DNA of 64,000 nucleotides. Origin: Candidatus Doudnabacteria bacterium. GTDB lineage: Bacteria; Patescibacteriota; Doudnabacteria; UBA920; O2-02-FULL-48-8. Under the pieces are notes generated by a model. That model worked only from the letters and a program-made list of their open reading frames with translations. It made no database searches and was not told the DNA's origin. Numbering within the stretch: the stretch's first letter is position 1; the number at the start of each line of letters is the position of its first letter. Shown here piece by piece: positions 7,091 through 34,471 of this stretch. The position numbers and the translations under genes were made by a program. Location: NCBI GenBank assembly GCA_037200925.1, contig JBBCGO010000001.1, positions 760,235-824,234 of the forward strand, given 5' to 3'.

Positions 7091-7225
7091 GACAGGTATG
7101 AGACAAAAATTAACAGGAAGCAATAATACATAAGAGGTAGTTAGGGAATTGAACAAATTCTTCATTTTCCTTTTTGCCTCTGATGTAATTTGTGGTTTCC
7201 TTCTTAAATGGAAGGGGGTGAAATT

Positions 7226-7696
7226 ATGAGAAACATGTTTAATCGAAAAAATAAGGGTTTTACTTTGATCGAATTATTGGTGGTTATCGCTATTATCGGC
7301 ATTTTGGCTTCTATCGTGCTGGTTTCTCTGAACTCTGCTCGTCAAAAATCACGTGACGCCAGACGTCTCGCAGACATCAGACAGGTTATGACCGCTTTGG
7401 AAATATTCTACAACGATAATAACCGTTATCCGTTGCCGCTAACTGCGTCAACCACAGGCCCTACACCAGCGGACGGCTCCCCAGCTTGGAGCACTTACGT
7501 TGCTATTTGGCCGACAACGCCGACGCCTAACGACGGTGCATGTACAGCCCCGCAAAACTTGTACACCTATACGCAAGGCCCAGGCGGCACTGCCTACAAA
7601 ATCGCCTTTTGTTTAGGTGCTCTTACAGGGGGATACCCCGGAGGTGTACCGCTGTATGCTTCGGGCGCAGGTATCAGCACTACGGCTCCATTCTAG
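7226..7696 (+). CDS. pilA: Type IV pilin (major pilin candidate), paralog 1
   Basis: Class III signal '[21 protein letters not shown]' (G|FTLIE). RBS GGAAGGGGG precedes the ATG at 7226. C-terminal 'YTYTQG...FCLG' motif is shared with paralogs 2 and 3. Confidence 0.8.
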
Positions 7697-7764
7697 CCTG
7701 AAGTATAAGAGTTGAGCGTACTTTCTTCCCTCACTTTCTTCTATGAGATTTCTCAAATTAGAAA

Positions 7765-8265
7765 GTGGGGGATCAAGTGCATTTAAATCACCTAACTTGT
7801 AACATGTATCATGGAACAAAAAAAACAAAACCGAAAAAAATTGATTCATGTTCCATATTCCATGAACTAGGCTTTATCAGCATTGAATCGCTGATTTTAA
7901 TTATTATGATTGGTTTGCTCATATTGACCGGTTTGACGGCTTATTTTTTTGCCGTTGGCCAAGCCCGCGACAAACAGAGAATGTCGGATATTGCCGCCAT
8001 CCAAACTGCATTGCAGATTTATTATAAAGAAAATGGTTTTTATCCGACCGGCCAAAGCATTGCTCAGCCTATGGGAATGACCGGTTACCTCGATAACTGG
8101 CCCACACCTCCGCAGCCTTCCGGCTTATGCACAAAAACGCAGAACCAATACCTTTATTCTCAAAAAGCCAACGGAGAAGACTTTAACCTGAGTTTCTGTC
8201 TGGGCCAAAAAACTGACGTTTTGTCCGCCGGGCCGCACACATTAGCTTCAAAAGGTATCCAATAG
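7765..8265 (+). CDS. Type IV pilin-like protein, paralog 2
   Basis: Prepilin-like 'HELGFISIESLILIIMIGLL'. Shares the C-terminal 'QYLYSQ...SFCLG' motif with paralog 1. Start codon uncertain. Confidence 0.55.
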   Translation: MGDQVHLNHLTCNMYHGTKKTKPKKIDSCSIFHELGFISIESLILIIMIGLLILTGLTAYFFAVGQARDKQRMSDIAAIQTALQIYYKENGFYPTGQSIAQPMGMTGYLDNWPTPPQPSGLCTKTQNQYLYSQKANGEDFNLSFCLGQKTDVLSAGPHTLASKGIQ

Positions 8266-8280
8266 TTCTGAACAAAAACT

Positions 8281-8769
8281 ATGAAAAATTTATCTTCAAA
8301 ATTGAAAAGGGCCGAGGGATTTACTCTGATTGAACTTCTGGTGGTCGTATCGATCATCGGGCTTTTGGCTTCTATCATAGTAGTTGCGCTTAGCAACGTA
8401 CGGCTCAAATCCCGCGATGCCAGGCGTCTGGCGGATATGCAACAGATCAAAACAGGCTTAGATATTTACTACAATTTAGGCTCAGGCTATCCGGATCCCG
8501 CCGATTGGAACGCGGCGCAGGCCGTACAAGGACAGCTTTCCTGTTCCGGGTCTCCAACTTTGACAGTTCCTCAGGATCCTCTGCATAATGGCACTCCGGC
8601 CTACGCGTATACTTACTCACAGGGAGGGAATATTTCTACGGGGTGTGGGGGAAACGTCTCCGCTGATTATGAAATTCAGTTTCAAACCGAGGGCGCTACT
8701 GACCTCGGTCCAGCAGGTACTTATTGGCTTTCCGGTTCCGCCGGAATAACTACTTCAGCTCCGTTTTAA
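8281..8769 (+). CDS. Type IV pilin, paralog 3
   Basis: '[22 protein letters not shown]' prepilin leader. Same length as paralog 1 (162 aa). Shares the C-terminal 'Y.Y.Q' motif. Confidence 0.8.
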   Translation: MKNLSSKLKRAEGFTLIELLVVVSIIGLLASIIVVALSNVRLKSRDARRLADMQQIKTGLDIYYNLGSGYPDPADWNAAQAVQGQLSCSGSPTLTVPQDPLHNGTPAYAYTYSQGGNISTGCGGNVSADYEIQFQTEGATDLGPAGTYWLSGSAGITTSAPF

Positions 8770-8829
8770 TTGACTGGAAAGTGAATTTAGAATAAATCCC
8801 GATGCTTGAGCAACGGGGTTTGTCATATT

Positions 8830-9588
8830 ATGACGCTACTATTTATTTTTATTTTCGGATTGATTGTCGGCAGTTTTTTGAATGTTGTGATTTTTCGGCT
8901 TGCTTCCGGCGAATCTTTTTTATTTGCCCGTTCTCATTGCCGCAGCTGTAAAAAGGAACTGCAGGCCAAGGATTTGATCCCAGTGTTTAGTTTTTTATAT
9001 TTGCGCGGCCGATGCCGGTATTGCGCCGCTGCAATTTCCAGGCAATATCCGGTTGTTGAACTGGCCACAGGGTTAATTTTTGTTTTGTTCGCCTTAAAGT
9101 TTCAAATGGTTTTCAGTTGGGTTTTTGCACTAAATATAATTTTCGCCTGTTTTCTGCTGGTGATAGCAGTGTATGATTTTAACCATTATCTGATCCTGGA
9201 TAAGGTTTTGCTGCCGGGTTTGGTCCTGGTTCTTCTTTATAACATTCTTCAAGGCTGGCCGGTCTTTTGGGCAGGCTTGCTTTCCGGGGCAGGGTTTGCA
9301 GGATTTTTTCTTGCGCAGTACCTGATCTCGCGGGGTAAATGGATCGGATTAGGCGATGTAAAATTAGGTTTCGTTTTGGGGAACCTGGCCGGCTGGCCAA
9401 TGAGTATTTTAGTTTTGATCTTAGCTTATGGGTCAGGCGCAGTTGTGGGAATAGCCTTGATCCTAATGGGACGCAAAAAATTCGGCTCTAAGTTGCCCTT
9501 TGGGATATTTTTGAGCTTGTCTGCTATAATAGTAATGCTGGCAGGGAACCCGATCATGACCTGGTATCTTAGATTGATCGGACTATAA
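8830..9588 (+). CDS. pilD: Prepilin peptidase PilD (A24 family)
   Basis: Polytopic membrane protein with an N-terminal zinc-binding 'CRSCKK...CRYC' box. The listed ORF begins at TTG 8806; an ATG at 8830 is preferred. Confidence 0.8.
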   Translation: MTLLFIFIFGLIVGSFLNVVIFRLASGESFLFARSHCRSCKKELQAKDLIPVFSFLYLRGRCRYCAAAISRQYPVVELATGLIFVLFALKFQMVFSWVFALNIIFACFLLVIAVYDFNHYLILDKVLLPGLVLVLLYNILQGWPVFWAGLLSGAGFAGFFLAQYLISRGKWIGLGDVKLGFVLGNLAGWPMSILVLILAYGSGAVVGIALILMGRKKFGSKLPFGIFLSLSAIIVMLAGNPIMTWYLRLIGL

Positions 9589-9601: not shown

Positions 9602-10222
9602 ATGAAACTTAAATACATAAAAAAGAATAAGCCTACAGACCACAGGTTACACGCTACAAGTTATGGCTTCACCCTGATTGAGCTGATGGTGGTGCTTTTT
9701 ATAACCACAATGATCGCAGGGATCAGTGTGGCTAATTTCCGGGCTGCTGAAAAACAGAAACAAGCGGTGATAGCCGGCGATACGGTAGTTAATGCCATAA
9801 GAAACGCCCAGAATTTTACCCTCACGGGTAAAAATACGAATAACACGGATGCAACTTGCCGTGTGCCGCAGTATTACTATATTACTTTTAATTATTCGGG
9901 CGCCATTGTTTTATCCGCTGTCCACAACAACAACAGCGCGGGCACATGCAGTTCGGCTCCTGATACTATTGAAACTTATCCTTTGCCGATCAATACCAGG
10001 ATCAAAGCAAGCGGCCTGGTATTGGACGGAGCCATTGCCAGTTCTTCTATATCATTTATGTTCATGCCGCCGTTTGGCGTCCTGACTGCAGGTAAGGATA
10101 TCGGAACGATCAATGCCACTACTACTGCTGCTTTTACCACGGCGACGATAAGCGTGGAAACATTAGAAGGGTCGGCCAGCAAGACCGTAACTATTGATGG
10201 AATAGCGGGCAAGATTCAGTAA
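9602..10222 (+). CDS. Pseudopilin / minor pilin
   Basis: 'SYGFTLIELMVVLFITTMIAGIS' class III signal. 206 aa. Confidence 0.65.
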   Translation: MKLKYIKKNKPTDHRLHATSYGFTLIELMVVLFITTMIAGISVANFRAAEKQKQAVIAGDTVVNAIRNAQNFTLTGKNTNNTDATCRVPQYYYITFNYSGAIVLSAVHNNNSAGTCSSAPDTIETYPLPINTRIKASGLVLDGAIASSSISFMFMPPFGVLTAGKDIGTINATTTAAFTTATISVETLEGSASKTVTIDGIAGKIQ

Positions 10223-10227
10223 AATAA

Positions 10228-10959
10228 ATGTCAGCTTACTTAAAAAAATTTATTGAATATGCAGGCAAGTACGGATGGGTAATCAGCATCATATTGAGTG
10301 TTGCTGCTTTGGGATTCAGCGTATACAATTTACGTGTTTTGAAAATCAAGATTACTCAGCAAAATTCGCAGGCAGCAGCTGCGCCAGCTCCAGGAGGGGT
10401 GGCGGGGATATCAGTTGATAAGTTATTGGCGGGCATGAGCGGCAGCGAGCCTGTGCTCGGAGATAAAAACGCGCCGGTCACTATGTATGAGTTTGCCGAT
10501 TTCCAATGTCCTTTCTGCAAAAGATTTTTTGACAGCAGCCTGCCTGAGCTGAAGCAGAAATATGTTGATACCGGTAAGGTCAAGGTTATTTTCGTCAATG
10601 TGGCATTTTTAGGACAGGAATCCAAAGACGCGGCTGAAGCCGCCAAGTGCGCCTCTGACCAGGGTCAATTTTGGCCCTATCATGACAGTTTGTATGACAA
10701 CCAAAGCGGCGAAAACCAGGGAACTTTCAGTGCCGCCAAACTCCAAAGCCTGGCGAAGAACCTGCACCTTAACTTAAATGATTTTAACCAGTGCACCGCC
10801 AGCCACAAATATCAAAAAGCCGTGAGCGATGAAACTGACCTGGCAAACCAAAACGGCGTTTCCAGCACGCCCACTTTTTTAATTAACGGCCAGCAAATCA
10901 TCGGAGCCCAGCCGACAGCAACATTTGAACAAAAGCTTGATGATCTTTTAAAAAATTAA
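10228..10959 (+). CDS. DsbA-like thiol:disulfide oxidoreductase (membrane-anchored thioredoxin fold)
   Basis: N-terminal TM anchor and a 'CPFC' active site within a thioredoxin-like context ('FADFQCPFCKRFF'). Confidence 0.75.
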   Translation: MSAYLKKFIEYAGKYGWVISIILSVAALGFSVYNLRVLKIKITQQNSQAAAAPAPGGVAGISVDKLLAGMSGSEPVLGDKNAPVTMYEFADFQCPFCKRFFDSSLPELKQKYVDTGKVKVIFVNVAFLGQESKDAAEAAKCASDQGQFWPYHDSLYDNQSGENQGTFSAAKLQSLAKNLHLNLNDFNQCTASHKYQKAVSDETDLANQNGVSSTPTFLINGQQIIGAQPTATFEQKLDDLLKN

Positions 10960-11798
10960 TGTCCCAATCCGTAAGCCTAACTGTTGCATTTTTAGGCGGA
11001 GTACTGACATTGCTCCCTGCTTGCGGGCCGGCTCTATTGCCGGCATTTTTTGGTTTTGTGTTCACTGAAAAACAAAAATTGGTTCTGGCCACGGTGTTTT
11101 TCGGTCTGGGGTTTGCCTTAGTTTTTTTTCCTTTCAGCTATGGGTTTAATTTTTTGGTCCATTTGTTGATTTATTCGCGGGAGGTTTTATTTGGCATCAT
11201 AGGCTGGCTGCTCGTAATTTTCGGTCTATTGTCGCTGTTTAATTTTTATTTGCCTTTATACTCAGGCGGAATCAGGCCTGTTCACAAGTTTTGGCAAACT
11301 TTTTTTTTGGGCATTATTTTTGGCCTGACAAGCAGCACTTGCACGGCTCCCATTTACGGGGCGATTTTGTCGTTGAATAGCTTGAGCTCAGGCTTTGTGC
11401 AAGTCAACCTGCTGCTCTTAAGCTTTATGGCCGGCATGATCATTCCGCTTTTGATCCTGGCAGGTCTTGTCGAACATTATGGATTGTTAAATTTAAGCAT
11501 CTTTCAAAAACCTGTTCTGAGAATAAATGTGGGCCATCGCATTTTTTCATTCTTTCTCGGCAATCTGCTGGCAGCGCTGGTTTTTATCCCTCTGGGATTT
11601 GCTTTTATCGTCTCAAAAGGCGGCGCACCATTCCTGTCCTTTGCCCAGTCAACGGGAATTTTGATAAAGTTTGAAACTTTGAACGAATCCCTGATCACTT
11701 ACAATGCGGCCCATCCCCATCTTGATTACTGGGTTTTGGGCTTATTGCTGGCATTTTGCCTGTTGCTGTGGTTAAATACATACAGGAATAAAGAGTGA
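10959..11798 (+). CDS. ccdA: CcdA/DsbD-family thiol-disulfide transporter
   Basis: Polytopic membrane protein with conserved Cys in TM1 ('LPACGPA') and 'TSSTCTAPIYG'. Start overlaps the DsbA stop (ATGA-type coupling). Confidence 0.6.
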   Translation: MSQSVSLTVAFLGGVLTLLPACGPALLPAFFGFVFTEKQKLVLATVFFGLGFALVFFPFSYGFNFLVHLLIYSREVLFGIIGWLLVIFGLLSLFNFYLPLYSGGIRPVHKFWQTFFLGIIFGLTSSTCTAPIYGAILSLNSLSSGFVQVNLLLLSFMAGMIIPLLILAGLVEHYGLLNLSIFQKPVLRINVGHRIFSFFLGNLLAALVFIPLGFAFIVSKGGAPFLSFAQSTGILIKFETLNESLITYNAAHPHLDYWVLGLLLAFCLLLWLNTYRNKE

Positions 11799-12826
11799 TG
11801 CGAATAAATTTTAATTTGCCTGCGGCGGTTTTGATTATTTTTTTATTTGCCGCGGGGATTGGTATCGCTTTGCTTAGCTCTAAATCCATCCGGCAGCAAG
11901 CGGTTTCACTCGGCCTGCCGCCGATTGATCAGTTTCGGAACCTAAATTACCAAGATCAGCTGGATTTGATCAAGAGGGCTGCGGAAGCAGATCCGGTTAA
12001 GACATGGACTTATGTGAAATCGGCGTTTTTGATCAATGGCCAGCAGGCAGAGAATGCTCATGAGTTCGCTCATTTGGTCGGGAACGGGATGTACAGCAAG
12101 TATGGGCTTGATGGCATCACCAATTGCGATGAAACTTTTGGATTCGGCTGTTTCCACGGCGTCTCACAAGAACTGCTGGAACAAAAAGGCGTGTCCGTGG
12201 TCAAAGAAATCCAAAGCCGTTGCATTCAAATTTTCCCGCCTGATAAAACTCAGAATTATAACGGTTGTATCCATGGCATGGGGCACGGACTTCTGACCTG
12301 GGAACATTTCCAGGTCGGGAAAGCTCTGCTTGATTGTGATAATCTTGACCAACTTTACCAAAATTATTGTTATGACGGAGTGTTCATGGAACATGCATCG
12401 GATCTGGCCCAAAATGAATTTGATCCGGCGCATTCCTGGCAGTTTTGCTCGGCGCTTGCTGACAAATACCATTATAATTGCGCGCGGTATCAATCCCAGG
12501 TTTTTTTAACCCGGTTCGGCATCGATATTCCGAAGATCGGAGCTTATTGCGCGCAAGCGCCTGACGAAATATCCAGCTCCACGTGTTCCGAAAGTCTGGG
12601 TTATTATATTACTGACATGAATCTGGGTAAATTGCCGCAGATCTTACGATCTTGCAGTCAGATAAAGGGCGACGGTTCGTATCATTGCATCATTGGCGCT
12701 TCCCGGGAAGTCGCATTCCAAACTTATGTCGGATGGCAAGAAACGGCGGAAGCTTTGTGCGAAAGCCTGCCTGCTAATTGGAAAAATCAGTGCCCTACAA
12801 CCAGCCAATCTCTTGCTCCAATGTAA
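11795..12826 (+). CDS. Cys/His-rich exported protein, paralog A (unknown function)
   Basis: 343 aa with an N-terminal TM/signal anchor. Conserved 'C.HG', 'C.HGMGHG', 'CDN', 'C.DGVFME' motifs are shared with the downstream paralog. Confidence 0.6.
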   Translation: MMRINFNLPAAVLIIFLFAAGIGIALLSSKSIRQQAVSLGLPPIDQFRNLNYQDQLDLIKRAAEADPVKTWTYVKSAFLINGQQAENAHEFAHLVGNGMYSKYGLDGITNCDETFGFGCFHGVSQELLEQKGVSVVKEIQSRCIQIFPPDKTQNYNGCIHGMGHGLLTWEHFQVGKALLDCDNLDQLYQNYCYDGVFMEHASDLAQNEFDPAHSWQFCSALADKYHYNCARYQSQVFLTRFGIDIPKIGAYCAQAPDEISSSTCSESLGYYITDMNLGKLPQILRSCSQIKGDGSYHCIIGASREVAFQTYVGWQETAEALCESLPANWKNQCPTTSQSLAPM

Positions 12827-12830
12827 TTTT

Positions 12831-13997
12831 ATGATCGAATTTCGGCAAAAATTGAAAAAACCTAACTTTGTTTATTTCTGGGGGTTCTTAGCCGTTGTCT
12901 TCCTTGTCCTAGGATCGATCTTGTTTTTTGCGTCCAGGCTTATTATCAGGAGAAACGGACCGCTTCCGGTTTCGACAGCCGATGAGATCATTCAGATCAA
13001 AGATACCACGATTCTTACCGAACAAGTTGCATGGTACAAAAAATTGATCGAAAGGGTAGGCCCGTCCGAAGCTCAGGACGATCTGGTTAATTCCGGGCTG
13101 CCGTTTACCGGGCAAACCCATTTACTCAATCATACAGTGGGTGATTATCTGTACGAGAAGTTCGGGGTTACAGGGCTTTCGCAATGCAAAGAATATTTTC
13201 TGGCCTCCTGCTATCACGGATTTATACTGGACGCGATCGCCACGGGCGGCATTCCGGAAGTGGCGAAGGTCATGAATGCCTGCAGGACTGAGGGTGTCAG
13301 CACCGTTTTTCCGCAATGCTCCCACGCCGTGGGACATGGATTTCTCGCATTTGTCGGTTATAAAAATTTAACCCAATCACTGACCATGTGCGATGACATG
13401 GTTAAAAGCGTTCCCGATTTTCCGACCTTTAACTGCCAGGACGGCGTGTTTATGGAAAATATCTGGGCTCTGCACGACGGATCTGTTTCTGCCGATCGCT
13501 GGGTCAAACCTTCAGATCCGGTTTATCCCTGTGACGATTCCAGGATCGGCCAGAAATATTTGCTGGCCTGCTGGTCGAACCAGCCGTCGCTGATGTACCA
13601 GCAGTTTAGCGGCGATCTGAAAAAAGTGGCTGGCCAGTGCGGTATCTTGCAGCAAACCGACTTGCGGCAGATGTGTTACAACGGGCTTGCCAGGCAGATC
13701 CATCCGATCGCCGCCGGGAATCTGGATCAGACCTTTGACCTTTGCGGTTTGCTCGGGCGGACTTGGACCGATTACTGCATTCTGGTCAATGACACGGCTT
13801 CTTTTTCAGTCGGGGACAGGTCATTGCCGTTTGCGATCTGCGCCCGGATTGACGCTGCCAGCAAGGACAGCTGTTATCAACAACTGCTAGGCATGATCAA
13901 TGCCTATGCCAAAAGCTCCTCTGAACAGACTGATTGGTGCAATAAGATCGACAGTCCGACATGGAAAGACCAGTGTCAGGCGCAGCAAAGACAATAA
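12831..13997 (+). CDS. Cys/His-rich exported protein, paralog B (unknown function)
   Basis: Start taken at 'MIEFRQ' (the listed ORF begins upstream at 12693, overlapping paralog A). Same Cys/His motif set: 'SCYHG', 'CSHAVGHG', 'CDD', 'CQDGVFME'. Confidence 0.6.
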   Translation: MIEFRQKLKKPNFVYFWGFLAVVFLVLGSILFFASRLIIRRNGPLPVSTADEIIQIKDTTILTEQVAWYKKLIERVGPSEAQDDLVNSGLPFTGQTHLLNHTVGDYLYEKFGVTGLSQCKEYFLASCYHGFILDAIATGGIPEVAKVMNACRTEGVSTVFPQCSHAVGHGFLAFVGYKNLTQSLTMCDDMVKSVPDFPTFNCQDGVFMENIWALHDGSVSADRWVKPSDPVYPCDDSRIGQKYLLACWSNQPSLMYQQFSGDLKKVAGQCGILQQTDLRQMCYNGLARQIHPIAAGNLDQTFDLCGLLGRTWTDYCILVNDTASFSVGDRSLPFAICARIDAASKDSCYQQLLGMINAYAKSSSEQTDWCNKIDSPTWKDQCQAQQRQ

Positions 13998-14110: not shown

Positions 14111-14818
14111 ATGAGAAACAGAAATAAAAACTATAGGCAAAGCGGGCAAACCCTTATCGAAACCATCGTAGCGATTTTCATTTTGACCACAGCGCTAACC
14201 GCGGGGCTGGGGCTGGCAATATATGCTTTTTCCAGCGCAACTACGTCACAAAACGAAATTGTTGCCTCTAATTTGGCCCGCGAAGGTGTTGAAATCGTGC
14301 GGATGATGCGCGATTCCAACTGGCTGGCAGCTGATGCCAAGGATCCTACGAGTGTACAGGGCTGGGGATTGCAGTCATGTGCTGACCTCATTGGCGGCAG
14401 GCTTTGCTACCCCAAAGTCTATCAGGCTGTTCCCGGATACAATACCTATAATCTTACTTCCGGTAATCAGCGGGCGATTTTTGCCCCTAACCCTACGACT
14501 TCCACCTGGTCGTTAGATGCTACGGCTAATTATGATCTGTATCTGCAGGCCGACGGCACTTATTCCTCCACAGCCAACGGTCAGGCCGTTTTTGCCCGCA
14601 TGATTAACATCAGATTTAATCCTCCGGACGCTGGCACTCCTTCGGTCCCCGCTAATACTTATACTTTTCAGAATCCGGAGATGATCGTAAAATCCGTTGT
14701 GGCATGGCGGGGAAAAAGCTGCCCGTCCTTTAGTTCCAATCAAGATCTTTTGGCATTATCTTCGTCCTGCAAGGTCGTGGTCGAGGAGCATATGACCAAT
14801 TGGAAGGACTATAGGTAG
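14111..14818 (+). CDS. Minor pilin-like protein (prepilin-type N-terminus)
   Basis: 'RQSGQTLIETIVAIFILTTAL' class III signal after a short basic leader. The listed ORF start at 14060 is probably too far upstream. Confidence 0.6.
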   Translation: MRNRNKNYRQSGQTLIETIVAIFILTTALTAGLGLAIYAFSSATTSQNEIVASNLAREGVEIVRMMRDSNWLAADAKDPTSVQGWGLQSCADLIGGRLCYPKVYQAVPGYNTYNLTSGNQRAIFAPNPTTSTWSLDATANYDLYLQADGTYSSTANGQAVFARMINIRFNPPDAGTPSVPANTYTFQNPEMIVKSVVAWRGKSCPSFSSNQDLLALSSSCKVVVEEHMTNWKDYR

Positions 14819-14820
14819 AA

Positions 14821-15414
14821 ATGCCAAATAACAAATTCCAAATACCGAATAAAATCTCAAATTTTAAAATTGGGAAGTCTCAATCGGCGTTCACGCTGAT
14901 TGAGACGGTAGTCGCCACGGCTGTGTTCGCTTTTGTCGTGACTTCAATTCTGGGTGTATATATATCAACCATCCAGCTGGACCGCAAAAGCCGGGCGCAG
15001 AGAGCCGTGGCCCAGGACGCCCGGTTCATCATGGAGTTCTTAGCCAAAGAGGTCCGCAACGGGACCATCAATTACCCAAGTTACGCATCAAGCACGGTTT
15101 CCGGCACCAGTGACTTATATATCCAGAACCAGGCCAACGTAGTTGAGCACTTTTTTTTGAGCGGAACGAACATGCTCATAAACAAAGGCGGGGCCAACGC
15201 TAATATGAATTCCAGCGGCACAAAGGTTACCAATCTGCTGTTTTATATCCAGCCCACAACCGATCCCTATACACCGGCCAAGAGCGCTAACGATCAGCCT
15301 CATGTGACAGTGGTCCTGGATCTGCAGTCAAACTACGGAACTGCGGCCAAAGACACCGTGACCATGAGCCTGCAGGACTCGTTTGCTATCAGTCGGTATA
15401 CAAGCAGGAGATGA
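14821..15414 (+). CDS. Short pilin-like protein; pilin domain 100% identical to the N-terminus of the downstream giant gene
   Basis: 'SAFTLIETVVATAVFAF' prepilin signal. nt 14907-15388 are identical to 15536-16017 (tandem duplication). May be a functional short pilin or a duplication remnant. Confidence 0.5.
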   Translation: MPNNKFQIPNKISNFKIGKSQSAFTLIETVVATAVFAFVVTSILGVYISTIQLDRKSRAQRAVAQDARFIMEFLAKEVRNGTINYPSYASSTVSGTSDLYIQNQANVVEHFFLSGTNMLINKGGANANMNSSGTKVTNLLFYIQPTTDPYTPAKSANDQPHVTVVLDLQSNYGTAAKDTVTMSLQDSFAISRYTSRR

Positions 15415-15473
15415 TCGCAAAATCTTTTGGCATTATCTTTGTCCCGTAAACAAACCCGCAGCCTGAAAGCGCT

Positions 15474-18400
15474 ATGAATCTAAAACCTATAACCCGTAAC
15501 CTGAGATCTGATTCAGGCTTTACCCTGATCGAAGCGGTAGTCGCCACGGCTGTGTTCGCTTTTGTCGTGACTTCAATTCTGGGTGTATATATATCAACCA
15601 TCCAGCTGGACCGCAAAAGCCGGGCGCAGAGAGCCGTGGCCCAGGACGCCCGGTTCATCATGGAGTTCTTAGCCAAAGAGGTCCGCAACGGGACCATCAA
15701 TTACCCAAGTTACGCATCAAGCACGGTTTCCGGCACCAGTGACTTATATATCCAGAACCAGGCCAACGTAGTTGAGCACTTTTTTTTGAGCGGAACGAAC
15801 ATGCTCATAAACAAAGGCGGGGCCAACGCTAATATGAATTCCAGCGGCACAAAGGTTACCAATCTGCTGTTTTATATCCAGCCCACAACCGATCCCTATA
15901 CACCGGCCAAGAGCGCTAACGATCAGCCTCATGTGACAGTGGTCCTGGATCTGCAGTCAAACTACGGAACTGCGGCCAAAGACACCGTGACCATGAGCCT
16001 GCAGGACTCGTTTGCTACAAGGCAATATCCGCTCCGGGTGTTTGGCGCAGGTTATACCACTCCTCTCTATACCACCCCTACTTACCCGACTCCGGCTTCA
16101 GGATTCGCCACCGGCGGCGCTGTCAGTACCAGTGGTTCAAATACTGTCCGTACTTTTAGTACAAGCGACACACTTACGGTTTTCAGCGCAGGGACGATTC
16201 AATACCTGATAGTTGCCGGCGGCGGCGGCGGCGGACAAGCTGACGGCGCCGGTGGTGGTGCCGGAGGAGTGATTACAGGACAGATGTCAATTGCGGCGGG
16301 TACCTACCCTATAATTGTGGGCGGCGGGGGCACAGGTGCCACAGGCAGTTGTCTAATTTCTGGAGACACTGGTAGCTCAGGGTCAAACTCGAGTTTTCAT
16401 GGTCTCACTGCTATCGCCGGCGGCGGCGGCGGCAGTTATGGTACCAGCGGTCTCAATGGCGGCTCAGGCGGCGGGGGCGGCGCAGGCAATGGTGCTGCCA
16501 CTGCCGGGCTTGGAACACCTAACCAAGGACATGACGGCATGAACTCAAACAATCCTCCTTTTGGCGGCGGCGGCGGCGGTGCTACGGCGGTTGGTGGTGG
16601 TTGGACTGCTGCAGCCGGCATCGGTGGCGCTGGAATACCTTCCGATATCACCGGCGCGACTGTTTACTACGGCGGCGGCGGCGGTGGTGGTGCTAATAGT
16701 GCCAACGGATCTGGCGGTACCGGAGGAGTTGGCGGCGGCGGCACTGGCGGTACCGGCGGCGGCGGCGGCAATGGCATCAACGGTACAGGCGGCGGCGGCG
16801 GAGGAGGAGGCCGCATCAATACCGTTCCTAATCCTACCTGCAGCGGCGGCGGCACTGGCGGCAATGGCGTTGTACTCATTCGCTATCTGACAAATCCCGA
16901 TATTACTCCTCCGGTTGTCACAGCTTTTGATGTTCAGCCAAAATTTACTTCAGGCGCGGTTACCGCAACTTTCACAACCACTGACTCTGGAGGCTCGCAT
17001 CTGAAGGATGCTGAGCTTTGGCGGGCCACTGCCCGATCCAACTGCACGACTACAGATGACTCCGGCTGTAATGATTGGGCTGCTGTGGAAAGCGAAGTCG
17101 CCGTGAGCGACGTTGTATGGACAAGTTTGGTAAATACGACTGCTACCGGAAATACTCTGACAAAAACCGGCGGAGCGGTCGGTACCAATGATGCGGGAGC
17201 CGTTTCGACTCGGACCATCGACTCCGGTGACGGTTATGTGGAATTCACTTACAACGGCAGCGGTTTTGGCGGCTTTGTGGATGGGGGATTAAGCAATGGA
17301 AATACTGACCAGAGTGTTGCCGATATAGATTTTGGAATAAAGCTGCAGCAAAGTAATTTTTTCTATGCTGAGGAAAATGGAGTGCCTAAAGGCTCTGCCG
17401 GCTCTTATGTTGTCGGGGATGTATTCAGAATCGCAGTTGTAGGAGGCGTAGTCCAATATTCGAGGAACGGGACGGTATTTTATACCAGCGTTCAATCGCC
17501 GACTTACCCCTTGTTATTTGATACATCCATAAAAGAACTTAATAGTTCAATCGCTAATGCCAAGATAGCCTCAACAGTCTCAGATTCCTGGACCGGAAAT
17601 CTTACCGATACTCCTCCGGCCAATATTGCCGAAGTTTACGGACTGCGTGTCCATGACAATGCGGGAAACACAGGATTCCAGCAGACGAAGATAATGGTCG
17701 GCGAAGTTACCCCGCCTGTCGTCACAGCGTTTGACGTTCAGCCCAGAACTACTTCAGGTTCAGTTACCGCCACATTTACGGCCACTGATTCCGGAGGCTC
17801 GCATCTGAAGAATGCCGAGCTTTGGCGCGCTACTGCCCGAACCAACTGCACGATTTCGGATAATTCCGGCTGCAATGATTGGGCTGTTGCGGCAAACACA
17901 ACCATTCCCGCCAATAATGTTGTATGGACAAGCGCGGTAAATGCGACTGCGACAGGAAACACTCTGACAAAAACCGGCGGAACGGATGGAACCTATGACG
18001 CAGGAGCTGTTTCGACCCAGACCATCGGCACTGATGGCGGTTATGTGGAATTCACTTACGCGAGCGGTACCGGCTTGATGGCCGGCGGATTAAGCAATGG
18101 AAATACTGATCAGAGTGATGCCGATATAGATTTTGGAATAAAGCTGCAACAAAGTAGTTTTTTCTATGTTTATGAAAAAGGAGTACAAAAAGGCAGTACA
18201 GGCACTTATGCTGTCGGGGATGTATTCAGAATCGCAGTTGTAGGAGGCGTAGTCCAATATTCAAGGAACGGGACGGTATTTTATACCAGCGTTCAATCGC
18301 CGACTTACCCCTTGTTATTTGATACATCCATAGGCGGCAGTAATAATTCAATCTCTAATGCCAAGATTTATTATCCCTCCTTAGATTCCTGGTCGGGTAC

Positions 18401-21400
18401 CATGACTGATACTCCTCCCACCGATACCTCATACATCTATGGCGTGCACGTTTATGACTATTCGGGAAACTTTGGACTGGAACCTGCCAAGATCTTTGTG
18501 AGCTCAACCTCATACGGTGTCACAACTTCCGGTTTTTATACCGTATATACGTTTACGATAAGCGGCACGTTTACGGTTGCATCTCCGCAAAGTGTCCAAG
18601 TTCTGGTGGTGGGCGGAGGCGGAGGCGGCAGCGGCAGTGCTAGCGGTGGCGGTGGCGGAGGAGGAGGAGCCGGCGGTTATAATTACAATGCGAATTATAG
18701 TGTGACTCCAGGTTCATACTCTGTCACAGTAGGTGCCGGAGGTGCTGGAGGCGTTGCCAATGTCCGTGCCAATGCACCAAATGGTTCTAATTCAAGTTTC
18801 GGAACCATCACCTCTATCGGTGGTGGTGGCGGCAATGGTTGGACTGATCCGAAAGCTTCTAATGGCGGTTCGGGTGGCGGAGCGGAATGGGGTGATACAG
18901 TCGGATTAGGCACAGCCGGCCAGGGGAACAATGGCGGTCTTGCCTCTACTACTGCTCCTGCCTCCGGCGGCGGAGGCGGCGGAGGCGCAGGTGCGGTTGG
19001 AGGAGCCGGCTCTAGCACAAATGGCGGAAATGGGGGAATTGGTCTTGCAAATTCCATCACCGGTACGTCTGTCTACTATGCCGGCGGCGGCGGCGGCGGC
19101 TCAACCAATGCTGCAGGATCTGCAAGCGCCGGCGGCCTTGGCGGCGGCGGCGTCGGAGGAAAAGTTTCTGCCGGGTCGCCCGGAACTGCCGGCACAGGCG
19201 GAGGCGGCGGTTCAGGCTCGAATGGGCTTGCCGGCGGCGCAGGAGGCAGCGGTATTGTGATCATCAGTTTTCTTACAACCCCGGATACGACGCTTCCTGT
19301 AGTATCTGCTTTTGACGTACAACCCAGGACAGCATCAAGTTCTGTTACTGCCACATTCACTGCCACTGATAGCGGAGGCTCGCATCTGCAGAAAGCAAAT
19401 CTAATGAGAGCGGTTTACGACGCTTCCACTTGTACAACCACGGTCAATACCGGTTGTGTATGGTCTGTTGCATCAACTATCACCGCTCCAGCGGCTGCAG
19501 ATACTTGGAACGCCGGATCATCACCGCCGGCAATGTTTTCTGAAATTCCTCCGGCCGCATCTTATATCTATGGCATTCAAGTCTATGACAATGCGGGAAA
19601 CTTTGGTCTTGAGCCTGCAAAGATCAAAGTTGATGCATTCGGATTATCAGCCTCCGGCGGTACCATTACAACCTCAGGCGGAGTTACGACTGCGACATTC
19701 ACAACCAGCGGTACATTTACGGTTAGCGGTTCCGGGACAATTGATTATCTTGTGGTCGGCGGCGGCGGAGCCGGTGGTGCGGGCGGCGGTGTTGGCGGCG
19801 GCGGCGGCGGAGCCGGTGGCGTGTTCAGCGGTTCCATGGCCGTTACTGCTCAAGCCTACCCTATAACAATTGGTGCCGGCGGTGCCGGAGGAGGAGCGGC
19901 CGTAGGCCCCAAGGGCTCCAATACAGTATTTGGAGCTATCACAGCTCTCGGCGGCGGCGGCGGCGGTAATTATTGTAATAATGCTACAAATGGCGCTTCA
20001 GGCGGAGGCGGCTCTTATAACTGTACTGCTGGAACGGGTACGGCAGGTCAAGGGCATGATGGCGGAGCGGGTAGTACTGACTCGCCATACGGCGGCGGCG
20101 GCGGCGGCGGGGTTAGCGGCAGTGGCGGAGCCGGCAGCAATACAAACGGCGGTGCCGGCGGAGCCGGTATTGCAAGTTCTATCACGGGTTCGCCTGTCTT
20201 CTATGGCGGCGGCGGCGGGGGCAGTATCTCAAGCGGTCCTCCTGGTCCTGGCGGCTCAGGCGGCGGGGGAGCTGGCGGAAGCGGCGCTAGTAACGGAACA
20301 AATGCGACCCCCAACACGGGCGGCGGCGGCGGTTCAGGCAGCGGTGCCGGCGGCAGCGGCGTAGTTATTATTCGTTATATTTCACCTGTAGTGGAGGGCA
20401 TTGCCCCGGTCGTTTCAGCTTTCGATGTGCAGCCGAGAAGCGGTTCAAATTTAGCTACTGCAACGTTCACAGCCACTGATGCCGGAGGCTCGCATCTACA
20501 GAAAGCTGACCTCTGGAGAGCTCCTTATGATGCCAGTGTTTGCAATCCTGCGGGCAGTACTGCCGGATGTAATTTCGGTGCATCTCCGGTAGATTCAGTC
20601 AATGCTCCGCCCGCCTCGGATGGCCCATGGAACGGCACCTTGCATGATTATGCCGTCGGGTCTTTGGTCTATGGCCTCCATGTATATGACAATTCAGGCA
20701 ATACCGGATTTGAGCCCGCAAAGATCAAAGTTGACGGTCATGCGGCATTCGCCACAGGCGGCACTATTACAACTTCTGGTATTTATGCGATCCATACTTT
20801 TACCTCAAGCGGTACATTCACGGTTATTGGATCGTCCCCCGCATCAGTTGATTATCTTGTGATCGGCGGCGGCGGAGCGGGCGGTGGTGCCGGCAATCCG
20901 GGCGGCGGCGGCGGTGGTGCCGGCGGCATGCGTAACGGTTCGCTGGCAGTTAGCCCTCAATCCTACACAGTAACAATCGGCGGAGGAGGTGCGAGCGTCG
21001 GCGCGAATGGTTCTAATTCTGTATTTGGATCTATCACTGCTCTCGGTGGCGGTGGCGGTGGCACTTATGGTTCTGCTGCTGCAAGTGGCGGGTCGGGTGG
21101 TGGCGGCTCTTATACCTATTCCGTTGGAAATGGTACGTCCGGTCAGGGTAACAATGGCGGATCAGGTACTACTAATTCTCCTTACGGAGCCGGCGGCGGC
21201 GGCGGCGCGGGTGCTGTTGGAGGAGCCGGCAGCGCTTCTGTTGGCGGAACCGGCGGAGCCGGTGCTTCGAGTACCATTTCCGGCGCAACTGTCTTCTATG
21301 CCGGCGGCGGCGGAGGTAATGTCTCAAGCGGTACTTCGGGTCCTGGCGGCGCCGGCGGCGGCGGAGCGGGCGGCCTCGGCGGCGCCGGAACAAATGGGAC

Positions 21401-23357
21401 CGCCAATACAGGAGGAGGCGGCGGCGGCGGCAGCGGTTCCGGCGGCAGCGGCATTGTTATTATTCGTTATCTTATACCGGTTCTAGAAGCCACTCCTCCG
21501 GTCGTTTCAGCCTTTGATGTGCAGCCGAGAAATGGTTCAAACGCAGTTACCGCAACTTTCACAGCCACTGATGCCGGAGGATCGCATCTTCTGAAAGCTG
21601 ACCTCTGGAAAGCTGTCTATGATGTCAGCAACTGCAATCCTGCGGGCAGCACTGCCGGCTGTAACTTCGGAGCAACTCCGGTAAACTCAGTCAATGCTCC
21701 GGCTGGCTCGGATGGCCCATGGAGCAGCTCTATGCTTGATAATGCCGCGGGGTCTGTGGTCTATGGCCTGCATGTTTATGACAATTCTGGCAATACCGGA
21801 TTTGAGCCGGCAAAGATCAGAGTTGATGCCCCGGCAGCATTCGCCACAGGTGGCACTATTACAAGTTCTGGCTTCAATGAGATCCATACCTTTACGTCGA
21901 GTGGGACTTTCACGCCCAGCGGTTCCGGGTCGATTCAATATCTGATAGTCGGCGGCGGAGGCGCAGGAGGCAGCGGCAGCGGCGGCACGGGCGGCGGCGG
22001 CGGAGGCGGGGGAGGAGTGCAAACCGGCACGCTGGCAGTTACTGCTCAACCCTACACTGTAACAATCGGCGGCGGCGGGGCAGGAGGTGCCAGCTCTGGA
22101 GCGAACGGTTCTAATTCAGTATTTGCATCTATCACTGCTACCGGCGGCGGCGGCGGCGCTACTTATGGAGTTGCTCCCGGAAACGGCGGTTCCGGCGGCG
22201 GCGGCGATTATAACGGAGTTGCGGGAACCGGTACCTCGGGTCAGGGTAACAATGGCGGATTGGGTTCCACTACTTCTACTTACGGCGGCGGTGGTGGTGG
22301 AGGAGGTGGTACTGCTGGAGGAGCCGGCAGTGCTACTGTTGGCGGAACCGGCGGCGCGGGTTTTTCGAGTTCCATTTCCGGCTCAGCTATCTTCTATGCC
22401 GGCGGCGGTGGAGGAGGCATTGTAAGCGGCACTCCCGGTCTTGGCGGAGGCGGCGGAGGAGGCGCGGGCGGAGCCGCTGGAAACGGTACCAGCGCTACAC
22501 CCAACACCGGCGGCGGAGGAGGCGCGGGCGGAAGCTCATCAGGACTTGGAGCTGCCGGCGGTTCCGGAATTGTTATTATCCGGTATAATCCTAGTCCTAG
22601 TGCATTTTTGCTGACCTCAGGCTCCTCTTGGACGGTTCCTGCTGGAGTTACAAGTATACAAACATGGGCAATCGGCGGCGGCGGTGGGGCAGGAGGAGCC
22701 GGACCCGCAGATGCCTCAACTGGTAGCGGTGGTGGAGCGGGAGGAGTAGCCTATAGTGCTTTTACTGTATCTCCTGGGGCGACTGTTTCTTATAGTTTGG
22801 GCAGCGCAGGTACAGGGGGTTCCGGCTGCGCCGGCGGTTCGACCGGTACGGCCGGCGGAAATACTACTGTGACAGTAGGCGGAGTAACCATCACCGGAAA
22901 TGGCGGCGGGGCGGGCGGCTGCAATACGGGAGTCGGCGGTACGGGTGGAAGTTTCAGCCCTAGCGGTGCAGCTGGCGCAGCCGGTCAAGGTGTAACTGGC
23001 GAAGGAGGGGGAGGATACGGCGGCGCAATAGGCGGCGGCATTGGTACCGCAGGAGGCAATGCCGGAAGTACAGGCGGTCAAGCTGTGGATGTTTCGGGCT
23101 CGAATGCGGTAATATCTGCGGCAGGATTCAGTACTTCGTCTCCTGGTGTTGGAGGCGGCACTGCTAGTACCCCTGCAAACGCGGTGAATGGAACGAGCGC
23201 AACGGGAGTAGGCGCGGGCGGGGGAGGAGCAGGTTGGTATGGGGGAACCGGAGGAAACGGTCTGTATGGAGGAGGCGGAGCAGGCGCTGCGGGATATCAA
23301 ACTAGTACGACGGGCGGAGCGGGCGGAGCCGGAGCAGTTCTTATAACATTCCCTTAA
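15474..23357 (+). CDS. Giant (2,627 aa) pilin-leader-fused, glycine-rich repeat surface protein (putative pilus-associated adhesin)
   Basis: N-terminal prepilin signal 'GFTLIEAVVATAVF' plus a ~165-aa pilin domain. About 6 repeats follow, each an Ig-like module 'PPVV(T/S)AFDVQPR...TATFTATD(S/A)GGSHL' plus a Gly-rich module 'SGTFTV...YLVVGGGGAGG...'. Two copies of a ~120-aa lectin-like segment ('GYVEFTY...DIDFGIKLQQS...VFRIAVVGGVVQYSRNGTVFYT'). Local GC is far above the flanking DNA. Confidence 0.75.
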   Translation: MNLKPITRNLRSDSGFTLIEAVVATAVFAFVVTSILGVYISTIQLDRKSRAQRAVAQDARFIMEFLAKEVRNGTINYPSYASSTVSGTSDLYIQNQANVVEHFFLSGTNMLINKGGANANMNSSGTKVTNLLFYIQPTTDPYTPAKSANDQPHVTVVLDLQSNYGTAAKDTVTMSLQDSFATRQYPLRVFGAGYTTPLYTTPTYPTPASGFATGGAVSTSGSNTVRTFSTSDTLTVFSAGTIQYLIVAGGGGGGQADGAGGGAGGVITGQMSIAAGTYPIIVGGGGTGATGSCLISGDTGSSGSNSSFHGLTAIAGGGGGSYGTSGLNGGSGGGGGAGNGAATAGLGTPNQGHDGMNSNNPPFGGGGGGATAVGGGWTAAAGIGGAGIPSDITGATVYYGGGGGGGANSANGSGGTGGVGGGGTGGTGGGGGNGINGTGGGGGGGGRINTVPNPTCSGGGTGGNGVVLIRYLTNPDITPPVVTAFDVQPKFTSGAVTATFTTTDSGGSHLKDAELWRATARSNCTTTDDSGCNDWAAVESEVAVSDVVWTSLVNTTATGNTLTKTGGAVGTNDAGAVSTRTIDSGDGYVEFTYNGSGFGGFVDGGLSNGNTDQSVADIDFGIKLQQSNFFYAEENGVPKGSAGSYVVGDVFRIAVVGGVVQYSRNGTVFYTSVQSPTYPLLFDTSIKELNSSIANAKIASTVSDSWTGNLTDTPPANIAEVYGLRVHDNAGNTGFQQTKIMVGEVTPPVVTAFDVQPRTTSGSVTATFTATDSGGSHLKNAELWRATARTNCTISDNSGCNDWAVAANTTIPANNVVWTSAVNATATGNTLTKTGGTDGTYDAGAVSTQTIGTDGGYVEFTYASGTGLMAGGLSNGNTDQSDADIDFGIKLQQSSFFYVYEKGVQKGSTGTYAVGDVFRIAVVGGVVQYSRNGTVFYTSVQSPTYPLLFDTSIGGSNNSISNAKIYYPSLDSWSGTMTDTPPTDTSYIYGVHVYDYSGNFGLEPAKIFVSSTSYGVTTSGFYTVYTFTISGTFTVASPQSVQVLVVGGGGGGSGSASGGGGGGGGAGGYNYNANYSVTPGSYSVTVGAGGAGGVANVRANAPNGSNSSFGTITSIGGGGGNGWTDPKASNGGSGGGAEWGDTVGLGTAGQGNNGGLASTTAPASGGGGGGGAGAVGGAGSSTNGGNGGIGLANSITGTSVYYAGGGGGGSTNAAGSASAGGLGGGGVGGKVSAGSPGTAGTGGGGGSGSNGLAGGAGGSGIVIISFLTTPDTTLPVVSAFDVQPRTASSSVTATFTATDSGGSHLQKANLMRAVYDASTCTTTVNTGCVWSVASTITAPAAADTWNAGSSPPAMFSEIPPAASYIYGIQVYDNAGNFGLEPAKIKVDAFGLSASGGTITTSGGVTTATFTTSGTFTVSGSGTIDYLVVGGGGAGGAGGGVGGGGGGAGGVFSGSMAVTAQAYPITIGAGGAGGGAAVGPKGSNTVFGAITALGGGGGGNYCNNATNGASGGGGSYNCTAGTGTAGQGHDGGAGSTDSPYGGGGGGGVSGSGGAGSNTNGGAGGAGIASSITGSPVFYGGGGGGSISSGPPGPGGSGGGGAGGSGASNGTNATPNTGGGGGSGSGAGGSGVVIIRYISPVVEGIAPVVSAFDVQPRSGSNLATATFTATDAGGSHLQKADLWRAPYDASVCNPAGSTAGCNFGASPVDSVNAPPASDGPWNGTLHDYAVGSLVYGLHVYDNSGNTGFEPAKIKVDGHAAFATGGTITTSGIYAIHTFTSSGTFTVIGSSPASVDYLVIGGGGAGGGAGNPGGGGGGAGGMRNGSLAVSPQSYTVTIGGGGASVGANGSNSVFGSITALGGGGGGTYGSAAASGGSGGGGSYTYSVGNGTSGQGNNGGSGTTNSPYGAGGGGGAGAVGGAGSASVGGTGGAGASSTISGATVFYAGGGGGNVSSGTSGPGGAGGGGAGGLGGAGTNGTANTGGGGGGGSGSGGSGIVIIRYLIPVLEATPPVVSAFDVQPRNGSNAVTATFTATDAGGSHLLKADLWKAVYDVSNCNPAGSTAGCNFGATPVNSVNAPAGSDGPWSSSMLDNAAGSVVYGLHVYDNSGNTGFEPAKIRVDAPAAFATGGTITSSGFNEIHTFTSSGTFTPSGSGSIQYLIVGGGGAGGSGSGGTGGGGGGGGGVQTGTLAVTAQPYTVTIGGGGAGGASSGANGSNSVFASITATGGGGGATYGVAPGNGGSGGGGDYNGVAGTGTSGQGNNGGLGSTTSTYGGGGGGGGGTAGGAGSATVGGTGGAGFSSSISGSAIFYAGGGGGGIVSGTPGLGGGGGGGAGGAAGNGTSATPNTGGGGGAGGSSSGLGAAGGSGIVIIRYNPSPSAFLLTSGSSWTVPAGVTSIQTWAIGGGGGAGGAGPADASTGSGGGAGGVAYSAFTVSPGATVSYSLGSAGTGGSGCAGGSTGTAGGNTTVTVGGVTITGNGGGAGGCNTGVGGTGGSFSPSGAAGAAGQGVTGEGGGGYGGAIGGGIGTAGGNAGSTGGQAVDVSGSNAVISAAGFSTSSPGVGGGTASTPANAVNGTSATGVGAGGGGAGWYGGTGGNGLYGGGGAGAAGYQTSTTGGAGGAGAVLITFP

Positions 23358-23420: not shown

Positions 23421-24182
23421 ATGAAGCTAGATTTGACTTTTAGGAAAATTCAACCAAAAAGAAGCCAAGAAGGTGTTACCCTGCTGATCTCGGTTTTGGT
23501 CATGTCGGGTTTGGCTTTGATCAGTTTGTCGGTTGCGGCTTTCGCCATTCAGGAATTGCGAGCATCCAGAGCCGTGATAGCCACGGAACCTGCGATCTCA
23601 GCTGCGGAGTCAGGCGGCGAAGAAGGCTTATGGGCGATCAAACGTTTACCAGCTTCATCTCTGGTAAATTGCGCCACCGGTCAAACCCCGCTAACCTTAA
23701 GCAACGGTTCTTTTGATACTTTGTGCAAAACGTACGGCAGTGCAGTCATAAAACTGCAAGCCAATGTCCCTTTTATTTTTTATCTATATGATCCGGGTAA
23801 TATCAACGGCGATATGGACCTGCTGGCTTATCCCTATACTAATTTGACGGTCATTGACCAATCAGGAACTAACAATGTTTCCGTAAATATCGTGCGCATA
23901 GATCAAAGCGCCACTCCGGTTGCCGGGGTAACGGTACCACCCGGTGCAACGCAGGTAATTAATATTATTAGCGTAGCGCCAGGCTCTGAAGGACGGATGA
24001 AAGTGACTTTGTTGTCCGTCAGTGATGCGACCGTGAACTTGAATACCAATCAGGGCATGCCGAATTTCCCGACAATCAATTCGGGAGGCTGTGCCGCCAG
24101 AACTGCCGTGGCTGATTGCGATACCTCAAACTCAGAATTATTCAGCCGCAGGATCAATATTACCGTGCCGCAGCCGCAATAA
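23421..24182 (+). CDS. PilX-like minor pilin / pilus-associated protein
   Basis: Hydrophobic prepilin-like N-terminus 'QEGVTLLISVLVMSGLALISL' without Glu5. Last gene of the pilus block. Confidence 0.45.
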   Translation: MKLDLTFRKIQPKRSQEGVTLLISVLVMSGLALISLSVAAFAIQELRASRAVIATEPAISAAESGGEEGLWAIKRLPASSLVNCATGQTPLTLSNGSFDTLCKTYGSAVIKLQANVPFIFYLYDPGNINGDMDLLAYPYTNLTVIDQSGTNNVSVNIVRIDQSATPVAGVTVPPGATQVINIISVAPGSEGRMKVTLLSVSDATVNLNTNQGMPNFPTINSGGCAARTAVADCDTSNSELFSRRINITVPQPQ

Positions 24183-29955: not shown

Positions 29956-33321
<3,366 letters not shown>

Positions 33322-34463: not shown

Positions 34464-34471
34464 TTTTTAAT

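Follow-up and report, generated by a model that had tools for sequence, protein, structure and literature searches.

How can two neighbouring pilin genes be identical to the last letter in their core and yet differ so thoroughly on either side of it? This question is raised by a type IV pilus locus in a metagenome-assembled genome (MAG) of Candidatus Doudnabacteria. The whole stretch of DNA analysed (the window, 64 kb of a 964-kb contig) encodes a short minor pilin, S (MEJ0021802.1), and behind it on the same strand a giant modular pilin, G (MEJ0021803.1), with the gene for an upstream minor pilin (X) before the pair and that for a downstream pilin-like protein (Y) after it. The sequences suggest that S and G are two old, different gene versions lying under a recent patch of identity, which covers mature residues 7-167, and most likely one copy recently overwrote the other, giving a letter-perfect pilin core. 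The explanation preferred here, to which we assign a probability of roughly 0.6, is that S is the resident short minor pilin and G a modular version beside it, that the pilin modules of both have been made identical by recent gene conversion, and that both proteins would fit the same place in the pilus.

The first-pass annotation of this DNA had described two in-frame pilin genes with an identical pilin domain, in the form of 482-bp copies at an offset of 629 bp. The two genes, the identity, and the offset all hold, while the exact run proves to be one nucleotide longer: positions 14906..15388 (+ strand), which encode mature residues 7-167 of S, match positions 15535..16017 (+ strand), the pilin module of G, over 483 nt without a single difference. 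These 161 codons contain no synonymous change between the two genes. The identity breaks off abruptly at both ends, as S and G differ at 5 of the 16 nucleotides just before it and at 15 of the 26 just after it, and the longest k-mer common to the two alleles outside the core is 11 nt. When the 5' ends of both genes are aligned, the score of 13 equals the shuffle mean, and they are not detectably homologous. The tract is the only long repeat with 100% identity in the window (the repeats inside G are 61-89% identical), and no third copy of it was found within the 64 kb. At a divergence of 12%, the probability of finding no difference in 483 nt is 1.5e-27, and it is still 1e-9 if only 161 sites (a third) were free to vary. 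In a tree of the pilin module, S and G group together, apart from all orthologues. Both tract copies also hold a T8 homopolymer (15141-15148 and 15770-15777, in codons for ..HFFL..), which is short for a slippage tract.

S (14821..15414, + strand) belongs to a well-conserved family of stand-alone pilins, represented by 50 homologues of about 180-200 amino acids. As had been described for the first copy, it has a leader of its own ending in KSQSA before FTLIE and a length of 197 amino acids, and this prepilin motif is recognized by PF07963 (N_methyl) with 23.3 bits against a cut-off of 21.2. The AlphaFold model of the protein, with a predicted local distance difference test score (pLDDT) of 87, shows a long N-terminal helix (26-80) followed by a 7-strand sheet, that is, the alpha-1 helix and beta-sheet head of the pilin fold. 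The leader spans 23 codons (14821..14889, + strand), with Ala at position -1 and degenerate heptamers (CCAAATA ACAAATT CCAAATA CCGAATA ...; lag-7 match 0.57, p=0.0005), and the 5' end of the gene, from the X stop codon through the leader, aligns with that of lineage L001 at 52 of 61 nt (85%; score 77 against a shuffle maximum of 24). At the other end, the C-terminal peptide (...DSFAISRYTSRR) closes with YTSRR, where the family consensus is YPSRQ, and the stop codon falls in the same column as that of the orthologues (alignment A1). A C-terminus made at the junction from out-of-frame X sequence was considered for S, and it was not adopted in view of this ancestral stop column and of the Y..SR pattern of the family.

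The ends of G (15474..23357, + strand) are of another kind. Its upstream spacer, start codon (15474), 15-codon leader (MNLKPITRNLRSDSG followed by F), and first five mature codons occupy positions 15450..15534 (+ strand), and the mature N-terminus reads FTLIEA, as opposed to FTLIET in S. The prepilin motif, RSDSG before FTLIE, scores 21.4 bits with PF07963, just over the cut-off of 21.2. This leader is also built of degenerate heptamers (AACCTAT AACCCGT AACCTGA; lag-7 match 0.62, p<0.0005), and the 5' end of G resembles a remnant leader in L032 (25/30 nt, score 35, shuffle maximum 20) and the corresponding region of L013 (38/54 nt). Neither a third-party donor for the S or G leader, within the window, nor a convincing promoter or terminator between S and G was found. 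Past the tract, the end of the pilin module (TRQYPLRV; 16018..16104, + strand, alignment A1) reads through the ancestral stop into a Pro/Thr-rich linker, so that G continues with YPLRV-FGAG where the orthologues end in ..R.YPSRQ; the joint peptide between pilin module and extension is ...DSFATRQYPLRVFGAGY.

Between the two genes lies a decayed copy of the 3' end region of X with an internal deletion (X'; 15406..15449, + strand), which begins inside the S stop region. The first-pass annotation had noted a degraded copy of the upstream gene at this junction and had concluded that the event spanned a gene boundary, and both points are borne out: block 15406-15424 matches X positions 14676-14694 at 17 of 19 nt, block 15418-15449 matches 14741-14772 at 28 of 32 nt, and some event must have crossed the X/S boundary to leave this piece behind. 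The ~46 nt of X that separate the matching blocks are absent from X', and 100 shuffles produced 0 chance matches to either block pattern. Aligned globally with the junction, the X-S region scores barely above shuffles, and the homology is limited to these two short blocks. A GGAGATGATCG microhomology is common to the S stop region and X, which makes it plausible that this is an illegitimate joint. Overall, X' is ~11-12% diverged from X and has lost two segments, and only one of its six mismatches lies at a third codon position of X, which is consistent with decay as non-coding DNA. It is far closer to the X of the window (28/32) than to the X of any relative (at most 20/32), and the event that placed G behind S therefore used local or very closely related DNA.

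Taken together, 0 differences in 483 nt inside the tract, the abrupt change at its edges, and the divergence of X' argue for conversion and not for a young duplication. An identity tract that includes synonymous sites, sharp edges, and diverged homologues are all found here, and non-reciprocal recombination has evidently acted at this locus, as the first-pass annotation had thought possible for gene conversion. On the other hand, its view of the exact identity as the trace of a fresh tandem duplication is contradicted by flanks saturated with differences and by 5' ends that are not detectably homologous. Nor did a duplication create the short gene: S is a conserved gene found at this position in more than 15 relatives, with a 5' end 85% identical to that of L001, and it is G that has been added in this lineage.

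The comparison with related genomes, which had been proposed as a check, gave a clear answer on this last point, since more than 15 related Doudnabacteria lineages (L001, L002, L007-L013, L016, L017, L020-L022, L024, and L028) have one S each, lack a giant gene, and show the order X-S-Y-LysM(-)-LigA. Thus, G and not S is the lineage-specific element. An orthologue of X lies directly 5' of S in all relatives, and Y adjoins S in L001, L002, L007-L013, L020, and L021 (tblastn). Among the lineages examined, a short and a modular form in tandem occur only in this genome, whereas the single gene of the relatives is either short (about 185 amino acids) or fused to C-terminal modules (LamG, Ig-like, or Gly_rich_2). 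In L018/L019 (P0173), S is fused to Big-like Ig, Ig-like, and Gly-rich modules via ...FATRNYPSRVVGGAAPG, and this joint (YPSRV-VGG) resembles that of G. In L025 (P0178), S is followed by a Pro-rich linker, Gly_rich_2, and a discoidin-like domain, and then by Y; in L026 (P0175), a fusion of S to LamG lies between X and Y; and P0176 and P0028 are further S fusions. When 1.8 billion representatives were searched with a profile, five of the 11 best cluster representatives proved to be fused forms, and in the pilin-module tree such forms are interspersed with short ones. Judging by these sequences, modular pilins, as defined by Raynaud et al. 2021 (PMC8179133), recur at the minor-pilin position between X and Y.

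Other changes at the same position have been observed in the relatives. In L032 (1421-1500), a dead stub consisting of a start codon, a G-class leader, GFT, and then stop codons lies just 5' of an intact S with a different leader. Within 90%-identity clusters, the leader has been replaced wholesale with the mature pilin unchanged (P0005 vs P0321; P0030 vs P0334), and leader swapping at the S gene appears to recur. In L016 (2-1084), a Gly-rich open reading frame (ORF) similar to the G modules lies 5' of X and is not fused to S, which means that Gly-rich modules also exist as separate genes beside minor pilin genes.

According to the conversion hypothesis, G, or its 5' end and modules, would have come to lie behind S in an event that brought the 3' part of X along, the GGAGATGATCG microhomology at the S stop codon being the probable site of the join. 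Decay of the X fragment would have followed. Much later came the non-reciprocal recombination of which the identity tract is evidence, copying 483 nt while each gene kept its own leader and C-terminal end. G could have originated, for example, from a tandem duplication followed by the capture of a leader and modules, or a close relative could have supplied a modular allele that was inserted with the help of homology. A circular fragment integrated in the Campbell manner was rejected as an origin, since the S leader would then be expected on the giant tail, the reverse of the pairing observed. As for the direction, identity of the core amounts to 71% with P0002 (L001 type, S leader class) and to 65% with P0009 (L013 type, G leader class); because the core is closer to the L001-type S even though the L001 and L013 organisms are equally distant at LigA and X, these values weakly suggest a transfer from S to G. 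The 483-nt direct repeat also makes a 629-bp deletion possible. This deletion would be in frame and of the RecA type and would fuse the S leader to G, leaving a single fused gene like those of L018, L019, L025, and L026.

Several observations weigh against this picture. The short unconverted ends of S break four near-invariant positions of the family, having Ala at -1 where 41 of 41 sequences in alignment A3 have Gly, Thr at +6 where 40 of 42 have Ala, Ser at 191 where 37 of 42 have Arg, and Thr at 194 where 40 of 42 have Pro, and S is for this reason possibly decaying. The X' remnant looks local, whereas the leader class of G looks foreign. No relative closer than ~70% protein identity was found (the closest orthologue has 68% nucleotide identity), so that the conversion cannot be dated; the contig index has no record that matches S, X, or G exactly. 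For S, a GspJ/PilW-like position is proposed on the basis of the gene order, of source annotations in which some S homologues are named PulJ or PilW, and of sub-threshold hidden Markov model matches. The gspJ model TIGR01711 matches S with E=0.03 (14 bits against a cut-off of 64.85), the best family-model match, HpsC, reaches 33 bits against 200 and covers the N-terminal helix only, and a Foldseek search of the PDB with the S model gave no significant match to a GspJ/PilW fold or any other. The gene order itself, with a weakly GspH-like gene at 9602, a weakly PilV-like X, S, and then Y without Glu5, can be compared to H-I-J-K or FimU-PilV-PilW-PilX, although these matches are weak.

If S is losing its function, the tandem might be a passing stage in the replacement of one allele by the other, the short form giving way to the modular one or the reverse. 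One of the genes, probably S, would then do nothing by itself, deletion between the repeats would eventually resolve the pair, and the identical core would reflect recency or neutral conversion. We consider this possible, though doubtful. All other lineages have only a short or only a modular form at this position, modular forms are interspersed with short ones in the tree, so that gain and loss recur, the dead leader and GFT stub before S in L032 shows that rearrangement debris recurs at the locus as well, and the ends of S break the positions mentioned above. Nevertheless, S keeps an intact ORF, a start codon, Glu5, the ancestral stop, and a leader with the heptamer periodicity of functional orthologues. 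The Ala at -1 is also present in other intact orthologues (L016 and L026), and S persists even though enough time has passed for X' to lose ~12% of its bases and two segments. The conversion hypothesis is also to be preferred to a very recent simple tandem duplication of a ~630-730 bp unit (the end of X plus S), in which identity would be a sign of youth. The direct tandem layout, the X remnant at the junction, and the GGAGATGATCG microhomology at the joint are what such an event would leave, but the whole unit should then be identical, and not only is X' 11-12% diverged with deletions and the sequence after the tract different at 15 of 26 nt, but the leaders cannot be aligned and belong to different classes with orthologues in other lineages, which makes this origin very improbable.

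An artefact of assembly or polishing, with only one true copy or with two diverged copies wrongly homogenised, has to be considered because the source is a MAG and errors are frequent in exact repeats that exceed the read length. However, the junction at 15389-15534 (S tail, decayed X fragment, and a spacer and leader of foreign class) is unique and is flanked by the pilin core on both sides, so an assembler could not have invented it; furthermore, k-mers common to the two alleles outside the core reach at most 11 nt, both ORFs are intact, and the contig is 964 kb long, all of which leaves this explanation with very little credit. The first-pass annotation had also drawn an analogy to pilE/pilS-type variation. 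In a programmed system of that kind, one copy would act as donor cassette for the other. Pilin genes, direct repeats, and evidence of conversion are indeed present, and Neisseria pilE/pilS likewise involves non-reciprocal recombination between pilin sequences. In that system, however, many silent, 5'-truncated, diverged cassettes feed one expressed gene and create diversity, whereas here there are only two copies in the 64 kb, both complete genes with an ATG and a leader, truncated silent cassettes were not found within the window, and conversion yields no variants. Recombination between two genes that do not differ in their common part cannot generate diversity, and the outcome is the opposite one, so that such a programmed system is scarcely credible for this locus.

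Duplicated genes can evolve in concert by gene conversion, and an example is the pair tufA/tufB in Salmonella. By analogy, concerted evolution of this kind is the closest mechanistic counterpart of S and G: in both cases, paralogues are identical over a sharp-edged tract, synonymous sites included, and differ in the flanks. They also differ in several respects, as a small gene is here paired, in full, with only the first 6% of a giant one, as the two partners are adjacent direct repeats, which makes deletion possible, and as their unconverted ends derive from different allele classes.

Regarding the product of the larger gene, what had been taken for a 2.6-kb repeat region behind the second copy is really a 7.9-kb gene encoding 2,627 amino acids, in which Pfam recognizes N_methyl and Gly_rich_2 (4e-88). 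The protein consists of the pilin module and an extension of ~2,400 amino acids with five Gly_rich_2 domains (69-88 bits each) and one weak sixth, five Ig-like domains, and two inserted lectin-like domains. The Gly_rich_2 domains alternate with the Ig-like domain, which is unannotated and has the pattern PVVxAFDVQPR...YGxHVYDNxGN, and two of the Ig-like copies each carry one of the lectin-like inserts, of ~150 amino acids and without a Pfam match. With 52% identity (E=1e-35), the Ig-like domain resembles its counterpart in the fused orthologue P0173, and an architecture common to G and P0178 (linker plus first Gly-rich domain) was recognized by reading the sequences and by Pfam. A search with the first 574 amino acids past the pilin module found no close orthologue of G; its matches are only generic Gly_rich_2 proteins from many phyla, the best of them with 50% identity over 27% of the query.

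Modular pilins, such as PilB and PilC of Streptococcus sanguinis, CofB, and ComZ, form an established class whose members are believed to be displayed at the tip of the pilus in cells of monoderm type (Raynaud et al. 2021, PMC8179133). G corresponds to the sequence definition of this class (PMC8179133), as it holds N_methyl, a Pro/Thr-rich linker, and the Gly_rich_2 domains described above, and, like the known members, it combines a pilin module with extra modules; lectin/LamG-type modules also occur in the fused relative P0175. The largest modular pilin noted in the InterPro survey of 2021 had 860 amino acids (PMC8179133), and G, about three times as long, may be the largest seen so far. Its modules are Gly_rich_2 and Ig-like repeats, and it stands beside a non-modular twin with an identical module, an arrangement not described for PilB or PilC. 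Whereas modular pilins and concerted evolution were already known, what is new here is a short and a giant twin side by side with an identical module.

Since their modules are identical, S and G should fit the same place in the pilus. Both would be cleaved by the prepilin peptidase PilD and would compete for the same place in a minor-pilin complex with X and Y, so that the pilus would receive either a bare subunit (S) or a subunit with a giant, probably adhesive extension (G). The earlier idea that the short protein provides a matching subunit for the giant one is compatible with the data. Its architecture suggests that G is probably an adhesin at the pilus tip, and a giant tip extension can be accommodated by a cell without an outer membrane (PMC8179133). 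In this respect, G probably works like the PilY1/PilC tip adhesins that sit on the PilVWX/FimU complex of type IVa pili, given that both are very large proteins encoded among minor pilin genes and expected at the tip. However, PilY1 is not a pilin and docks onto minor pilins, whereas G is itself a pilin, with a leader, Glu5, and an alpha-1 helix. The identity of the two modules may be selected or merely recent.

Cells of the Candidate Phyla Radiation (CPR, Patescibacteria) are thought to depend on type IV pili for host attachment and DNA uptake, and to our knowledge it is largely unknown how their pili gain specificity. The locus described here indicates that one minor-pilin position has been repeatedly fitted with different surface modules across Doudnabacteria, that a single genome can hold bare and armed versions together, and that recombination keeps the pilus-fitting part identical in S and G. 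It thus constitutes a testable model for the gain, swap, and loss of tip adhesins in uncultivated episymbionts.

The leader-coding regions of the S orthologues hold arrays of heptanucleotides, with about 4-5 copies (~30 nt) of a unit that differs by lineage, and often two different arrays lie side by side. Perfect arrays are found in relatives, such as CCAAATT x4.7 in L009, CTACAAC x4.3 in L013, and CCACATT x4.1 in L011, while the unit of L008 is CCAGATT. Over 18 leaders, the lag-7 match is 0.46 (shuffles, 0.30±0.014), and 7 outranks all other lags in 12 of them; among the tandem repeats in 264 kb of these loci, period 7 is represented by 67 arrays, period 6 by 14, and period 8 by 7. The arrays also occur 5' of X and Y and in intergenic spacers. 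In the window, they have been located at 14824-14886 (S leader), 15477-15515 (G leader), 9605-9664, and 7793-7818, and in relatives at 798-861 and 1402-1473 of L009, 2765-2855 and 4243-4338 of L013, 2735-2805 of L008, 7865-7933 of L011, and 2358-2394 of L016. The periodicity of the S, G, 9602, and 7765 leaders of the window is degenerate yet significant, with p values from 0.0005 (<0.0005 for G) to 0.0075.

As 7 nt are not a whole number of codons, slippage would shift the reading frame, and the arrays of the relatives follow the start codon and precede the mature part of the protein, as phase variation requires. This suggests by analogy that they may act as opa-like slippage switches. The Neisseria opa genes, with CTCTT repeats in the region coding for the signal peptide, are alike in that their repeats, too, occupy this place and have a unit length that three does not divide. 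They differ in that the Doudnabacteria unit has 7 nt and about 4-5 copies and is also intergenic, that no copy-number polymorphism has been seen, and that the arrays of the window are degenerate. Indeed, no copy-number variation was found in L028-L031 (four contigs of one species from four samples, with identical leaders), and clean variants of ±1 unit were not found among cluster members, where leader replacement was found instead (P0005 vs P0321; P0030 vs P0334). The heptamer arrays could alternatively be a binding element, which fits their nearly constant length and the intergenic copies.

A broader interpretation would treat the position between X and Y as a hot-swap socket, in which the core serves as a recombination anchor while leaders, with their heptamer arrays, and C-terminal modules (LamG, Ig-like, or Gly-rich, of up to 2,400 amino acids) are exchanged between lineages. 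The tandem of S and G would then be a working state with bare and armed tip subunits, each with a heptamer leader of its own, the core being kept identical by conversion, and heptamer leaders would be possible on/off slippage switches elsewhere. We regard this interpretation as speculative and rather unlikely.

The pair belongs to a type IV pilus gene cluster that encodes PilB (2672-4441), PilT (4805-5884), PilC (5888-7090), pilins (7208-8769), and PilD (8806..9588, + strand; Pfam A24_N_bact 7e-34, Peptidase_A24 8e-14). The machinery that S and G would need as pilins is thus encoded between 2672 and 9588, and PilD is the enzyme expected from its sequence to cleave their leaders. A weakly GspH-like pilin gene starts at 9602, 3' of the PilD gene, and the order continues with a DsbA-like gene, three ORFs, X, S, G, Y, a LysM gene on the minus strand, and LigA. 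The ORF of X opens at a TTG (14060), and its likely start is the ATG at 14111 (14111..14818, + strand); the protein has an N_methyl match of 22.7 bits and is weakly PilV/GspI-like (TIGR02523 PilV, E=3e-5, below the cut-off). Y (23421..24182, + strand), the homologue of which lies directly 3' of S in relatives, is a pilin-like protein without Glu5 and is PilX/GspK-like by position. The three successive ORFs between the DsbA-like gene and X (10959-13997; 279, 343, and 434 amino acids) have no Pfam or NCBIfam match. The third of them, next to X, is kept beside X in L007 and L013 with 61-66% identity, and all three may encode further pilus components.

Other features have been observed elsewhere in the window. 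The 23S rRNA match at 29955-33329 is 3,375 nt long, compared to 2,925 nt of the model, so one or more insertions amounting to ~450 nt are likely, and such insertions are often seen in the rRNA of the CPR. No 16S gene was found 5' of it within the window, and a 5S gene lies at 34349-34464. An Rfam tRNA match of 100 nt (33944-34043), not reported by ARAGORN, may be a tRNA with an intron or with an unusually long variable region. Finally, two direct repeats of 148 nt (48202-48349 and 50857-51004; 91% identical, 2.65 kb apart) bracket the stretch of lowest GC content in the window (32% GC, 48-50 kb). The small minus-strand ORFs between these repeats have no Pfam match, and the region may be a small inserted element.

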